64,000 bases of DNA. It comes from a virus. The position numbers and the translations under genes are program-made. The stretch lies in the IMG/VR virus record IMGVR_UViG_3300021364_000008, positions 35,004 through 99,003 of that record. One strand, given 5' to 3'. Positions within the stretch are counted from its first letter, which is position 1. Each line of letters begins with the position of its first letter. A model generated the notes under the pieces. The model saw only the letters and a program-made list of their open reading frames with translations. It was not told where the DNA came from and searched no databases. Shown here one piece after another: positions 34,905 through 38,165 of this stretch.

Positions 34905-35231
34905 ATGGGTAAGCATTATCTTCTTAATCTTTATGGGTGTCCATTTCATCTTTTAAATGATGAAAAATGTCTTATAGATTTGTTGGAATATGCTGCAATC
35001 ATAAGTGGAGCAACTGTAATTCAAACAATCTCTAAGAAATTTGAACCTCAAGGAGTGACTGTAATCTGTTTGCTTGCAGAAAGTCATATTAGTATTCATA
35101 CTTGGCCAGAAGATGGAAAGGCAGCTGTAGATTGTTATACATGCGGAGACTCAAATCCAAAAATGGGATGTGATATTATCACTCATCAGCTTAAATGTTC
35201 AGATCATACACTGAGTTATATTGAAAGATAA
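34905..35231 (+). CDS. speD: S-adenosylmethionine decarboxylase proenzyme
   Basis: FEPQGVT..LLAESHISIHTWPE...DCYTCG (E-SH pyruvoyl cleavage site). Confidence 0.92.
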   Translation: MGKHYLLNLYGCPFHLLNDEKCLIDLLEYAAIISGATVIQTISKKFEPQGVTVICLLAESHISIHTWPEDGKAAVDCYTCGDSNPKMGCDIITHQLKCSDHTLSYIER

Positions 35232-35233
35232 AT

Positions 35234-35285
35234 TGTATAACAAATTACAAAGGCACTTGACTATATAGAGTATAAGGTCTATAAT
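35234..35285 (+). promoter_or_regulatory. NtcA-like box plus sigma70 promoter
   Basis: TGTA-TAACAAAT-TACA (35234-35249); TTGACT(35257)-17 bp-TATAAT(35280). Confidence 0.7.
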
Positions 35286-35290
35286 TGACC

Positions 35291-35516
35291 TATCGTTCAT
35301 TCGCTATTTGCAAATAGCGAACGCAAGTAAGTCGCGGAACGGAGTTCGTTCATCTATGGAAACGCTTTTATTAACTTGTTTACAGACACAATTACTTGTT
35401 TCTAGAATCCAAAATCATCCACAATTATCTCCCAAGATAAGAAATGAGTTGATTTGGGAACTCAAGCAAGTTACTGAAAAGAAGTGTGACATAGACGCAA
35501 ACGACTAAAGGAACGG
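35291..35516 (+). ncRNA. Double glutamine (glnA-motif) riboswitch-like leader
   Basis: Two CGTTCA starts (35294, 35347) and two GGAACG ends (35336, 35510); P2 palindrome 35300-35321; ACGCAAGTA/ACGCAAA junctions; upstream of DUF4278. Confidence 0.7.
35356..35508 (+). CDS. 50-aa ORF embedded in the riboswitch-like RNA
   Basis: METLLLTCLQ...CDIDAND; ATG lies in the tctatg/cataga stem; GGAG at 35341. Confidence 0.5.
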   Translation: METLLLTCLQTQLLVSRIQNHPQLSPKIRNELIWELKQVTEKKCDIDAND

Positions 35517-35550
35517 GAATTAAAACTCTCATTTCTAAGGAGCAAAAACA

Positions 35551-35688
35551 ATGAGTCGCGTAACTTATAGGGGTGTTTCATATGACACCGAATCTCGTCG
35601 CCAACAACAGGCACAAGTACAGCAGCAACCTCAGCAATACAACGAAGCTTATCGTGGAGTTAAGTTTGTAAAAGAGGGGAACAAGTGA
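35551..35688 (+). CDS. DUF4278 family small protein
   Basis: MSRVTYRGVSY...AYRGVKF; AAGGAG RBS; not in the ORF track (45 aa). Confidence 0.8.
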   Translation: MSRVTYRGVSYDTESRRQQQAQVQQQPQQYNEAYRGVKFVKEGNK

Positions 35689-35795
35689 TGCAGAAACTCA
35701 ATGTTCTTCAAATGATCAAAGAAAAAAAACAAAAAGAGAATAGAAGGCATCAGGCAGCACTTTGTCAAATCGGTCAATGTAAAATCAAAAAATAA
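35688..35795 (+). CDS. Small basic hypothetical protein (35 aa)
   Basis: TGATG coupling; MQKLNVLQMIKEKKQKENRRHQAALCQ... Confidence 0.55.
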   Translation: MQKLNVLQMIKEKKQKENRRHQAALCQIGQCKIKK

Positions 35796-35799
35796 TTAA

Positions 35800-35955
35800 A
35801 TGGATAACTATGTCTACCATGATGATGACATGGACAAGGACAATAGACCACCTGCATGTTATCAATTAACATACAGGGGGTGTAAGTATTGGTCTTGCTA
35901 TCTTATTCATTTAAGAGAATGGTTTGAAAAACTATTAATATCTGAGGGATCTTGA
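35800..35955 (+). CDS. Second DUF4278-like small protein (51 aa)
   Basis: QLTYRGCKY motif. Confidence 0.55.
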   Translation: MDNYVYHDDDMDKDNRPPACYQLTYRGCKYWSCYLIHLREWFEKLLISEGS

Positions 35956-35980
35956 CATCCCTCTTTTTTTTGTTTAAAAT
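35944..35980 (+). terminator. Terminator fused to a sigma70 promoter
   Basis: gagggat/atccctc stem plus T tract; TTGACA(35952)-17 bp-TAAAAT(35975). Confidence 0.75.
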
Positions 35981-36178: not shown

Positions 36179-36435
36179 TGACTACATCCAAATCACAACA
36201 AGTCAAGGAAGAGTTTTTATATCCAACTCCTCCATTAAATCCAGATTCTGATAAATCATTTCTGGAAATTGCACAAACAAATAATTTAAATAATTTTTCC
36301 ACACATCTACAGTATATTTCTGCAATGGTTATTGGTGGAAAGATGAATGTAGAAGATTCATATAGAGAAGTGAAGAATCTATATAAATCTTGGAAATCTT
36401 CTCACAAATCATTAAAAGGAGGATGGTTCAATTGA
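36178..36435 (+). CDS. Hypothetical protein
   Basis: GGKM..EDSY.EVK.LYK.WK.SHK pattern; coupled ORF. Confidence 0.6.
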   Translation: MTTSKSQQVKEEFLYPTPPLNPDSDKSFLEIAQTNNLNNFSTHLQYISAMVIGGKMNVEDSYREVKNLYKSWKSSHKSLKGGWFN

Positions 36436-38165
36436 AACCAATCAAAGCAAAGGATCTTCTCGAACTTGATAAAAGACTTGAGGTAGTTAAACTTCAGTGC
36501 TACCCAATTCCAGAGCAAGTCATTTGGCAGGCAGGAAAAGGAGATTATTCTGAAGTTCCAATTCACGAAGTTGAAGTTCCTAGTCCACAAAAATGCGGTG
36601 AATGGATTGTAAATACTTTACTTGCAAATGAAAGAGGACATTATGGTTGTTACTCTTCAGATACTCAGGTATTAACTGAAAATGGGTGGGTATATTGGAC
36701 TGAAGTAACGGAAAAAACTTCTCTTGCCGCTTATAATATTGAAACAGGAATAGTTAACTTTGAAACACCTTCAGCAGTTCAAAGGTGGGATTATGAAGGT
36801 AAAATGTATCATCTCACTGGACAATCTTTGGATATTCTGGTAAGTCCAGATCATCGTATGATTGTTCAAAATAGAAAAAAAGATGGAACTTGGACTTCTC
36901 CTTATGCTATAACTGCAGAAGAAGTCTATCAAAAACCAGTTAGATATATTACTACTGGAAATCTTTCTATTTCTGATCGAACCAATTTACAAACTCCAAT
37001 TGATAATGAACTCTTTTGGGAATTGGTTGGATTTTGGATTGGTGATGGGGACAAAGATGCCAAAGCAAATACATTAAGATTTCATTTAAAATTGAAGCGT
37101 AAAATTGATTATCTTGAAAATTTGTGTAAAGATCTTGGGTTAGATTTTTATCCAACTAAAAATAATAGATATACTGTATCATTCACTGGCATTGGTAACT
37201 GGTTTAAAACTAATTGTCTTACTGAAGATGAATCTAAAAAGTTTCCTGCAGGATATTTGAGATTGGAAAAGGATTGTGTTCTTAGTCTTCTTGAAGGTCT
37301 GAGAAATTCTGATGGAACTAAAAGGAGAAATACTTGGTCTTATTCAACTACTTCTAAAGTGTTGGCAGAACAGATGCAAGCGATTGCTTCTGTAAATGAC
37401 TTGAGATTTACTTGTTATATTGAAGAAAGAACTAATGAAAATCACAAAGATTTGTATGTTCTTAGATTAACCGCACAAATTAGTCCAAGAGTAGAAACAT
37501 CACAATCTGGTAGATCAAAAACATATGTGGAAGAATGGATTAATTATAAAGGACAAATTCACTGTGCTACTGTTTCTACTGGTGCTTTGATTGTTCGTCG
37601 CAATCAAAAAATTGTTATTTGTGGGAATTGTTTAGAACATCCTTCAATTACATTCTCAGTTTCTGGTTTCGTACATAGTGTAATCGTACAGGCAAGAACA
37701 CATCGCATTGGAACTTCTTGGGATGTACAATCCCAGAGATATACTGGAAAAAGAGTCGTGAAGGTTGCCAAAGGTGAACTTGATATTGAGGATGTTTTCT
37801 ATGTGCGCCCTGAAGGGTTCTATACCAATCGTAAGGGTAAGAAGTATGAATGGACCGAAGAACACCGTCAACGCAAGTTGGGGAGGATTCTGAGTGAGTG
37901 TGAGGAGTATGCTGAGTATTATGGGCAAGGTATGTGCGAAGAACATATTCGTGACTATCTTCCTCAGGCAATTCGTCAGAACTTTGTAGTCTCATTTAAT
38001 CTTCGATCTGTTCTTCATTTTCTGGATCTTCGTGCTAAACTTGATGCTCAACTTGAGATTCAGGCATTATGTGATTCATTTATTCCCGAATTACAAAAAT
38101 GGTCGCCAAATGTCTGGGAGTATTATGAAGAAAAAAGACTCAAAAAAGCAAAACTTTCTCCCTGA
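36432..38165 (+). CDS. thyX: Flavin-dependent thymidylate synthase ThyX containing an intein
   Basis: GHYG/CLEH, QARTHR..S..VQSQRY, RDYLPQ, NLRS and AQLEI motifs; TTG start 9 nt after AGGAGG. Confidence 0.92.
   Translation: MKPIKAKDLLELDKRLEVVKLQCYPIPEQVIWQAGKGDYSEVPIHEVEVPSPQKCGEWIVNTLLANERGHYGCYSSDTQVLTENGWVYWTEVTEKTSLAAYNIETGIVNFETPSAVQRWDYEGKMYHLTGQSLDILVSPDHRMIVQNRKKDGTWTSPYAITAEEVYQKPVRYITTGNLSISDRTNLQTPIDNELFWELVGFWIGDGDKDAKANTLRFHLKLKRKIDYLENLCKDLGLDFYPTKNNRYTVSFTGIGNWFKTNCLTEDESKKFPAGYLRLEKDCVLSLLEGLRNSDGTKRRNTWSYSTTSKVLAEQMQAIASVNDLRFTCYIEERTNENHKDLYVLRLTAQISPRVETSQSGRSKTYVEEWINYKGQIHCATVSTGALIVRRNQKIVICGNCLEHPSITFSVSGFVHSVIVQARTHRIGTSWDVQSQRYTGKRVVKVAKGELDIEDVFYVRPEGFYTNRKGKKYEWTEEHRQRKLGRILSECEEYAEYYGQGMCEEHIRDYLPQAIRQNFVVSFNLRSVLHFLDLRAKLDAQLEIQALCDSFIPELQKWSPNVWEYYEEKRLKKAKLSP
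36648..37628 (+). mobile_element. Intein with LAGLIDADG homing endonuclease (327 aa)
   Basis: Block A CYSSDTQVLT, block B SPDHR, endonuclease motifs LVGFWIGDG and LLEGLRNSDG, C-terminal ICGN followed by Cys+1. Confidence 0.92.

Follow-up and report, generated by a model that had tools for sequence, protein, structure and literature searches.

A candidate nested double glutamine riboswitch with a gene inside one of its hairpins, upstream of a DUF4278 gene in T4-like cyanophages

How might two riboswitch aptamers fold when neither has a full set of helices of its own, and when a gene lies within one of their hairpins? The question is raised by a leader in the DNA analysed here (the window: 64,000 nucleotides, positions 35,004–99,003 of the 99-kb IMG/VR virus record IMGVR_UViG_3300021364_000008), which BLAST places with a T4-like cyanophage having relatives in the Kyanoviridae. 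Two aptamer cores of the glutamine-I type lie within positions 35294–35516 of the window, upstream of a DUF4278 (IF17-like) gene. An earlier note, made from the letters alone, had proposed that the two are interlocked, with an outer P1 helix, a P3 helix shared between the units, and an inner, permuted unit that holds a 50-codon open reading frame (ORF). It seems probable to us that this leader is indeed a nested ("domain-swapped") double glutamine aptamer with an embedded gene, and that it works as an ON switch for DUF4278.

The nested fold and its covariation

Solved structures of glutamine-I and glutamine-II have a long-range pair as a cap over the ligand pocket, in which the base that follows ACG pairs with the one that follows GAACG (PMC6698751). 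This pair, here called the linchpin, was assigned as G23:C60 in the glutamine-I structure 5DDP by equivalence with C19:G41 of glutamine-II (PMC6698751; 5DDP sequence, PMC5393176). The proposed fold has the following parts (window positions).

35294..35298 (+): 5' strand of outer P1, CGUUC, pairing with 35511–35515; picked out de novo by RNAalifold, with its register fixed by linchpin covariation
35300..35321 (+): outer P2 hairpin, palindromic, with a UGCA loop; its pairs covary in homologues (CG/UA/AU/GC)
35321..35329 (+): outer junction core, ACGCAAGUA, comprising the triple-forming G35323, the linchpin C35324 (pairing with G35516) and the 5' strand of the E-loop, AAGUA (35325–35329)
35330..35334 (+): 5' strand of the shared P3, AGUCG, pairing with 35502–35506
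35337..35351 (+): inner P1 hairpin (GAACG 35337–35341, loop GAGUU 35342–35346, CGUUC 35347–35351)
35353..35358 (+): 5' strand of inner P2, UCUAUG, holding the start codon of the ORF and pairing with 35490–35495
35490..35495 (+): 3' strand of inner P2, CAUAGA, within the last codons of the ORF
35495..35501 (+): inner junction core, ACGCAAA, without an E-loop strand; G35342 is the partner of its linchpin, C35498
35502..35506 (+): 3' strand of the shared P3, CGACU, in which U35506 doubles as base 1 of the stop codon
35507..35516 (+): 3' strand of the E-loop, AAAG (35507–35510), 3' strand of outer P1, GAACG (35511–35515), and the linchpin G35516

All the motif positions in the earlier note (the P1 strands, hairpin, P3, inner hairpin, P2, ATG, GGAG and stop) proved exact. 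Its remark that neither half has a P3 hairpin of its own also stands: only 4–9 nucleotides lie between AAGUA and GGAACG in the first half, homologues included. In the window's first half, 4 nucleotides replace the 10-position P3 hairpin of the Rfam glutamine-I model (RF01739), and P3 is formed instead with a strand about 170 nucleotides downstream.

Otherwise the likeness to the established aptamer is close. The conserved cores equal the ligand-site nucleotides of 5DDP and glutamine-II, and ACGCAAGUA agrees with the RF01739 consensus positions. A P1 helix CGUUC/GAACG encloses the junction in both the outer and the inner unit, and is invariant or compensatory (CAACG/CGUUG) in homologues; in both units a P2 hairpin begins directly after CGUUCA and is closed before ACG, and both P2 stems covary. 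The E-loop (AAGUA(A) and (U)GAAG flanking P3) is confined to the outer unit, the inner unit lacking both strands; its 3' strand is UGAAG in about two thirds of relatives and AAAG in the window. The first half (35292–35345) aligns over the whole of RF01739 with 26 bits (E 0.002), and at the gathering threshold, which is 35 bits for this family, Rfam has no match anywhere in the window.

Folded on its own by RNAfold, the window sequence forms P3 as well as the inner hairpin and inner P2 (−62.8 kcal/mol, z −3.05, none of 200 shuffles being as good), and the sequence of the cultured phage S-PM2 gives the inner hairpin and inner P2. In the window sequence alone, a five-base complement some 170 nucleotides apart is no more than chance would provide; the pairing of AGUCG with CGACU is raised above chance because it is conserved, with compensatory changes, in more than 100 related cyanophage sequences.

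These relatives were gathered in several ways. BLAST found the region in 102 phage records: S-SRM01, DSL-LC02 and DSL-LC03 have the whole layout, ORF included, in common with the window, S-RIM2 and S-RIM32 keep the layout with different stem sequences, and S-PM2 has both cores, lacks the ORF and has a second hairpin of only 22 nucleotides. Scanning IMG/VR with a pattern for the stretch that joins the halves yielded 120 loci, and nine further cultured phages carry the element, in compact form (Bellamy) or with an ORF (S-SM2, S-SCSM1, S-PRM1, S-CAM9, S-SKS1, S-T4, S-SZBM1 and Syn1). The length of the second hairpin is bimodal, being 11–27 nucleotides in 38 loci and 129–195 in 85, and in all the long forms the 5' strand of the stem includes an ATG. 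Two sets of distinct sequences were compared, alignment A1 (n=72) and a wider set (n=116). The 15-nucleotide junction pattern, when sought in genome contigs by a search not centred on cyanobacteria, gave essentially random matches and one phage-like contig only; this sole match with the full architecture, L174 (a 3.8-kb contig in an Acetobacteraceae metagenome-assembled genome bin), looks like cyanophage DNA mis-binned into a bacterial genome.

The four P1 strands, a, a', b and b' in their order along the RNA, are alike in sequence, so that the halves could pair side by side (a with a', b with b') or nested (a with b', a' with b). What distinguishes the two registers is the behaviour of the variable positions. 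In A1 (columns 69/354) the outer linchpin of the nested register is C·G in 53 sequences and G·C in 19, with no mismatch, and in the side-by-side register those 19 would show a G·G mismatch in one of the units and a C·C mismatch in the other; in the wider set the nested register gives 93 C·G, 21 G·C and 2 mismatches. The two linchpin states are each found with the same P3 sequence types, so the change took place more than once, or was carried by recombination, and always affected both sides together. The inner linchpin is paired in 71 of the 72 sequences of A1, a count to be read with the fact that the first scan fixed the middle as GGAACG-G-A-N-CGUUCA and thereby constrained this base; where a scan left the first base of the inner loop free, it was G in nine loci out of nine.

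The P1 helices tell the same story. In S-PRM1, a' is CAACG and b is CGUUG, with a and b' still CGUUC and GAACG; in S-CAM9, closely related to it, the strands are of the usual kind. Scanning for the CAACG/CGUUG variant found nine more loci, with varied loops and ORF lengths, and wherever the outer 5' strand could be identified (in L336 it was not found) the outer strands were unchanged. Over the wider set the inner P1 is thus of the usual kind in 106 sequences and CAACG/CGUUG in 10, with no mixed state. In those ten, the side-by-side register would put C·C and G·G mismatches into the P1 helices.

The earlier note had named three findings that would tell against it, among them a lack of covariation in the five-base-pair helix AGTCG/CGACT, and none of the three is borne out: compensatory variants occur in this helix, the ORF behaves as coding, and independent folding of the units fails in many sequences (both below). 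In the second half, the stretch that precedes (U/C)(G/A)AAG is the partner of the first-half stretch that follows AAGUA, and the types include AGUCG/CGACU (the window), AGUCA/UGACU, GGACGG/CCGCCC, GGCUAACG/CGUU(G)AGCU and AGCCAAC/GUUGACU. Position 1, which closes the helix, has A·U, G·C, C·G or G·U; position 5 has G·C, A·U or G·U; and in the long types position 8 can be U·A, G·C or A·U. The idea that the shared P3 is not conserved, suggested by the presence of GCCGAC in both halves of some relatives, was dropped: these have an eight-position helix with two C·A mismatches and compensatory ends.

The E-loop points the same way. Its strands are split, the first half having AAGUA only and the second UGAAG or UAAAG only. 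In 5DDP the two strands flank P3 (PMC5393176); here they can meet across P3 only in the nested fold, so that the inner unit is, symmetrically, without both. Given 18 compact homologues and no hint, RNAalifold chose a with b', the a'–b hairpin and both P2 stems. From these comparisons we accept that the outer unit appears to be a complete glutamine-I aptamer whose P3 is closed by a second core, circularly permuted and lacking the E-loop; the fold proposed earlier is therefore backed by covariation, and independent folding of the units is disfavoured, since about a quarter of sequences would then need mismatched capping pairs at the ligand sites.

A survey had recorded only two glutamine aptamers in cyanophage genomes (PMC5473149). 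This near-absence fits with the Rfam scores, since the model can take in contiguous halves only and these fall just under the cut-off, as they do in 14 of 15 cultured-phage loci; the nested element is present in many cultured Kyanoviridae.

The gene in the inner hairpin

The inner P2 loop of the window phage holds one further feature.

35356..35508 (+): embedded gene for a 50-residue Cys-X35-Cys microprotein of the phrog_504 family; ATG 35356–35358, 50 codons, stop TAA 35506–35508

Its anatomy is as the earlier note had it: the ATG lies in the inner stem, the GGAG (35341–35344) overlaps the loop of the inner P1 hairpin, of which G35342 is the linchpin base, and the stop is at the end of P3. 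The 50 codons lie within a longer frame that opens with TTG (35308–35508). In the 85 loci with long inserts, the frame from the stem ATG is intact in every one, despite 30–60% nucleotide divergence, and insert lengths step by 3; the AUG always stands inside the stem and is 3–5 nucleotides after CGUUCA in 84, no Shine–Dalgarno (SD) sequence of the ORF's own was ever found inside the loop, and in 75 the stop is the UGA or UAA of the E-loop strand, 4 nucleotides before GGAACG.

The check on coding status revealed purifying selection. Within length classes, codon-position divergence runs 3 > 1 > 2 (for example 0.59/0.44/0.22) and the ratio of nonsynonymous to synonymous substitution rates (dN/dS) is 0.25–0.4; a value of 1.16 for the 165-nucleotide class was set aside as meaningless, since that class mixes subfamilies without homologous positions. 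The phrog_504 profile matches the window ORF at E 2.1e-10 and the S-RIM2 homologue at E 3e-27, and two Cys residues are invariant in the family, at fixed spacing. AlphaFold2 predicts a two-helix hairpin (mean predicted local distance difference test score, pLDDT, 85). Comparison with Pfam gave no family above cut-off (weak matches at E ~0.08–0.1 only), the ESM Atlas returned viral hypotheticals only, and Foldseek matched no PDB entry at E≤0.001, a generic helical hairpin being all that it gave. By its coding signatures the ORF is a real gene.

The gene and the aptamer make demands on the same nucleotides. In 73 distinct loci, positions 1–5 of inner P2 over the ORF are paired in 100/100/99/99/85% of cases, the pairs being of CG/UA/UG and CG/UA/AU types and the variants including UCUAU/AUAGA, UCCCA/UGGGA, UCCUAU/AUAGGA, UCUCAU/AUGGGA and UCUUAU/AUAAGA. 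The C-terminal residue encoded by the 3' strand (W, I, Q, K and others) changes with the 5' strand; the 5' strand itself is not translated, which places the covariation in the RNA. Among 5.8 billion proteins a profile search found 173 homologue clusters, all metagenomic or from cyanophages, and 106 of the best 120 end in the tail DAND, DAKAD or DAHD, encoded by the aptamer core ACGCAAACGAC-UGA; the phrog_504-like family seems to exist only in this riboswitch setting. The inner loop itself may be involved in initiation: GAG, which creates a GGAG 11–12 nucleotides before the AUG, is found in 58 ORF-bearing forms and 1 compact form, whereas GAU is divided 20 to 21 between them. This is suggestive of GGAG as the SD of the embedded ORF, and lineage effects are also possible.

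Nor is the inner hairpin alone in this. The outer P2 hairpin also carries an ORF, of 59–75 residues, in 30 of about 128 distinct loci, including L050:4953-5156 (+), L336:5094-5291 (-), L025:4544-4720 (+) and 27 others. Here too the ATG lies in a stem whose strands are complementary and covary, and some of these ORFs stop at the UAA of the 5' E-loop strand (AAG-UAA). They belong to phrog_6471, to phrog_13397 (found elsewhere in the inner hairpin) or to no family, and have two invariant Cys at an offset of 36 positions (35 residues between), as in the window's family; by profile comparison the outer- and inner-hairpin families are homologous (hhalign probability 96.5%, E 8e-10). Several phages have ORFs in both hairpins, and the window in the inner one only. 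Because outer P2 hairpins host homologous ORFs too, hairpin-embedded microprotein genes are a recurrent feature of the riboswitch.

The operon, the proposed switch and the readings weighed

Around the aptamers the window has the following features.

35234..35247 (+): NtcA-box-like GTA-N8-TAC, read in the sequence, 10 nucleotides upstream of the −35 hexamer
35257..35285 (+): early promoter of sigma-70 type, TTGACT-17-TATAAT, 11 of 12 matches
35509..35536 (+): alternative, ligand-free hairpin predicted by RNAfold, AGGAA-C-GGGA (35509–35518) with UCUC-A-UUUCU (35527–35536), adjoining the SD
35537..35542 and 35551..35688 (+): SD AAGGAG and the DUF4278 / IF17-like gene, presumed to be the regulated gene
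35685..35795 (+): small ORF of 36 residues in the same operon
35800..35955 (+): small ORF of 51 residues in the same operon
35944..35963 (+): intrinsic terminator closing the small operon

Directly upstream is speD (34905–35231; AdoMet_dc, E 1e-33). Transcription should, judging from the promoter, start at about 35292, within a few bases of 35294, which is the 5' end of the aptamer; this position makes the structure the 5' end of an early mRNA, and the same arrangement of promoter and leader is seen in S-PM2, Bellamy and others. NtcA-box-like motifs lie within 160 nucleotides upstream in 68 of 127 related loci (estimated chance expectation about 4%), with the motif centre estimated at about −52, compared with the canonical −41.5. 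The product of the DUF4278 gene scores 20.5 bits against PF14105 (cut-off 25.3, E 6e-4), has the repeated YRG motifs and matches phrog_5049 (E 1.6e-13); cyanobacterial glutamine aptamers have been linked to DUF4278 genes (PMC6212724). Of the small ORFs, the first overlaps the DUF4278 stop (GTGATG), and neither has a PHROG or Pfam match. Further downstream, the window's ThyX gene (36390–38165 (+), 591 residues) has its Thy1 match at residues 414–574 only and a LAGLIDADG match at 295–361; the S-SRM01 homologue has about 250 residues, and the window gene appears from this to be interrupted by an intein or homing-endonuclease insertion.

How might the aptamers act on DUF4278? The alternative hairpin sequesters the 3' strand of outer P1, and in relatives the corresponding helix lies over the SD and shows covariation. 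In most relatives ACGAC-U(G/A)AAG (the 3' strands of P3 and E-loop) can pair with CUU(C/U)AG-GA-GU, covering the DUF4278 SD. In this helix the middle base of the ORF's stop codon covaries, A standing opposite U in 24 of 24 relatives (the window being the one exception), and C occurring only opposite G (26 of 26). The class with a G·C linchpin has a different anti-SD, CUCUUUA, which begins at the linchpin C. In the window variant, CGACU (35502–35506) can instead pair with AGUCG at 35554–35558, directly after the DUF4278 AUG: there are two copies of the heptamer AGTCGCG, one in the P3 5' strand (35330–35336) and one at 35554–35560, so that the P3 3' strand has two alternative partners in this phage. 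In every type of platform, formation of the outer aptamer withdraws the inhibitory strand. A comparable anti-SD arrangement has been proposed for Synechocystis gifB (PMC6212724), and ON behaviour has been shown for glutamine-I and -II switches before DUF4278 genes (PMC6212724; PMC6698751).

Some relatives have an extra conserved element between the last GGAACG and the SD (GGGAAAACGGAUC, a stem with a GAAA loop, then AGAAGGUUAA), found in L248 ~598–650 (Bellamy), L249 ~740–790 (S-SM2), L250, L251, L252, L254 and L336, and absent from the window; its ACGGA and GAAGG motifs recall aptamer strands.

By analogy with the tested glutamine-I and -II switches, glutamine would lock the outer P1, E-loop and P3, and the locked outer unit would pull the strand made up of P3 3', E-loop 3' and P1 3' off the DUF4278 ribosome-binding region, turning DUF4278 translation on. 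With the inner P2 loop filled, as it is in the window phage and most relatives, by the microprotein gene, the folded, liganded aptamer would bury the ORF's initiation region (SD in the inner P1 loop, AUG in inner P2), and a ribosome on the ORF would have to melt inner P2, P3, the E-loop and outer P1. Because of these structural overlaps, ORF translation and aptamer folding would be mutually exclusive. If glutamine stabilises the fold, as we infer, high glutamine would favour DUF4278 and disfavour the microprotein, and the toggle between the two that the earlier note suggested is plausible. Alternatively, a ribosome reaching the ORF stop might strip the anti-SD strand from the DUF4278 SD about 30 nucleotides downstream, in which case the result would be activation by coupling and not a toggle. 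The partner strand of the AUG is made about 130 nucleotides later, which might leave a co-transcriptional window for ORF initiation. The comparisons show the fold, the gene and their overlaps; that both cores bind glutamine, that DUF4278 is switched ON and that the microprotein is under reciprocal control is inferred.

Several points weigh against the nested switch proposed here. All the sequences are from related Kyanoviridae, so that the counts are not of independent events, and the first scan constrained the inner linchpin as mentioned above. In most sequences the identical P1 strands fit both registers, and discrimination comes down to some 30 sequences. The long P3 types keep two fixed mismatches, C·A and A·C; a stem of 5–6 base pairs closing a loop of about 130 nucleotides is weak by itself; the expression platform of the window departs from the majority, being the single exception; the Pfam score of the DUF4278 product is under the cut-off; and glutamine binding by both cores, above all by the loop-closed inner one, is a prediction from sequence.

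What other accounts would fit? The strongest takes the nested fold as real and the ORF as a passenger that has lodged or arisen in a tolerant hairpin loop, much as endonuclease ORFs sit in intron loops, and is of no regulatory meaning, the overlaps being a matter of genome compaction. We think this unlikely, though not negligibly so. The ORF-less compact forms in many phages (the 38 loci; S-PM2, Bellamy) speak for it, as do the P2 loops being the variable part of the aptamer and the homologous ORFs in either hairpin, as for a portable hairpin module. Against it are an AUG that is always in the stem (3–5 nucleotides after CGUUCA in 84 of 85 loci) with no SD of its own in the loop, an SD-like GAG loop nearly confined to ORF-bearing forms, a stop coinciding with the anti-SD/E-loop strand in 75 of 85, and a physical interference between ribosome and fold that is unavoidable.

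Rather improbable is an account in which both registers are used, the first half folding co-transcriptionally as a single aptamer that is later remodelled into the nested fold, with glutamine-dependent pioneer translation of the ORF before the 3' half is made about 150 nucleotides later. Identical P1 strands would ease such strand exchange, the late transcription of the AUG's partner would suit it, and the first half alone does match RF01739 end to end; against this, about a quarter of sequences do not keep the side-by-side register, and the first half has no 3' E-loop strand.

Two aptamers folding independently in tandem (first CGUUC with middle GAACG, second CGUUC with last GAACG), with AGUCG/CGACU a matter of chance, would be in keeping with published doublets, whose units lie a few nucleotides apart (PMC5066625; PMC9481103), with genuine side-by-side doublets of complete units in other phage contigs, with the alignment of each contiguous half to the Rfam model, and with P1 sequences that allow the pairing in most copies. 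We regard it as highly improbable in view of the capping pairs mismatched in both units in 19 of 72 sequences, the C·C and G·G in both P1 helices in ten, the want of a P3 hairpin and of one E-loop strand in each half, the covariation of P3 in trans, the choice of the nested fold by RNAalifold, and the sub-threshold Rfam scores of the halves in 14 of the 15 cultured-phage loci. That the 135-nucleotide insert is a non-coding, structured expansion of P2 whose open frame is incidental is scarcely credible, since the extensive internal pairing in its minimum free energy structure is outweighed by a frame open in 85 of 85 with lengths stepping by 3, the 3 > 1 > 2 order of codon positions, the dN/dS of 0.25–0.4, the two invariant Cys, the PHROG matches and the confident AlphaFold2 model.

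The nested switch that we prefer can, more tentatively, be extended to a hitherto unrecognised "Russian-doll" riboswitch, in which a permuted aptamer sits within the P3 of a canonical one, the helix that they share couples the two ligand sites mechanically, and the P2 hairpins of both house Cys-X35-Cys genes reciprocally wired to the ligand, giving a glutamine-dependent choice, or coupling, between microprotein and an IF17-like regulator of glutamine synthetase early in infection. The P2 hairpins would then possibly be birthplaces of the Cys-X35-Cys microprotein superfamily.

Comparison with known riboswitches

The nearest relative is glutamine-I itself (glnA RNA, RF01739; 5DDP), which shares the core CGUUCA, ACG-N-AAGUA and GAAGGAACG-N, the three-way junction, E-loop and capping pair, the association with DUF4278/IF17-like genes and a likely translational ON logic. 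The cyanophage element differs from it in that P3 bridges to a second, permuted core, the halves score 26 bits against the 35 required, and a gene lies inside a stem-loop.

Classical tandem glutamine riboswitches likewise have two cores a few nucleotides apart before one gene. It might be thought that all of them are nested, an idea that was rejected: scanning for a complete 3' strand (GAAGGAACG) followed by a nearby CGUUCA found doublets in 13 phage contigs, and in almost all of these the units are complete, each with a P3 hairpin to itself, the two E-loop strands and a G·C linchpin that matches. The classical doublets (L386, L398, L443, L466, L474, L383, L420 and others, from marine phage) precede a small ORF, MTKYQ...NPFYP. 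One cyanophage contig among the 13, L393, has its two halves after speD; both keep both E-loop strands, the P3 segments (AGGCGACA / UGCCACCU) can pair only in trans, and a phrog_504-like ORF occupies the second hairpin, so that on these features it could be an intermediate between doublet and nested forms. In the cyanophage element, unlike the classical doublets, strands are exchanged between the units, and only the nested pairing satisfies all the conserved pairs; as predicted here it is a distinct, strand-swapped variant. In a published collection, 157 doublets and 4 triplets were treated as pseudo-cooperative independent switches, by a pipeline that left out intervening ORFs and long gaps (PMC9481103).

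Glutamine-II (the Downstream-peptide motif, RF01704), used by the marine picocyanobacterial hosts before DUF4278 genes (PMC6212724), is a rearranged topology of the same pocket and, like the inner unit, has no E-loop. It differs in having a pseudoknot with P2 flanking GGAACG, where the inner unit is a permuted junction closed by a hairpin; RF01704 matches in relatives reach 22–30 bits (cut-off 33), there is none in the window at E≤10, and no conserved flanking P2 was seen. The tandem glycine riboswitch also has two homologous, physically interdependent aptamers serving one expression platform (PMC5066625), but these lie side by side and interact by tertiary contacts, with no strand exchange, nesting or ORF.

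For the cyanophage form, then, covariation supports an alternative to the side-by-side tandem, in which strands are swapped and a permuted aptamer is nested inside. Folding of the two ligand sites should then be coupled, and there are compact natural versions of about 110 nucleotides (S-PM2, Bellamy). A literature search for nesting, permutation or an embedded gene found no mention, and as Ames & Breaker (2011) and Ren (2015) were outside that search, prior description is possible. If the scheme holds, an IF17-like protein and a microprotein family are expressed early in a way linked to the nitrogen status of the host, through glutamine and perhaps NtcA. The element also bears on how constraints on RNA and on protein overlap, on whether genes may be born de novo and on the logic of riboswitches coupled to translation. 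We know of no other metabolite riboswitch in which aptamer helices fix the start, the end and the last six codons of a conserved gene for a structured protein.

There are looser parallels outside the glutamine class. In the mgtA and mgtCBR leaders of Salmonella (mgtL, mgtP, mgtM) and in leader-peptide attenuators, translation of an ORF decides which helices form in a ligand-responsive leader. ORFs of the mgtL/mgtP/mgtM type are short sensor peptides without a conserved fold, whereas the cyanophage ORF belongs to a conserved, structured family of 50–75 residues and lies wholly within one aptamer hairpin. The ORFs of group I and II introns are lodged in a tolerant peripheral loop with the RNA stem closing over them, start inside that loop and do not overlap the catalytic core; in the cyanophage element, by contrast, start and stop lie in conserved aptamer helices. 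Set beside all these systems, the predicted nested glutamine riboswitch with its hairpin-embedded gene is a new form of a known riboswitch class.

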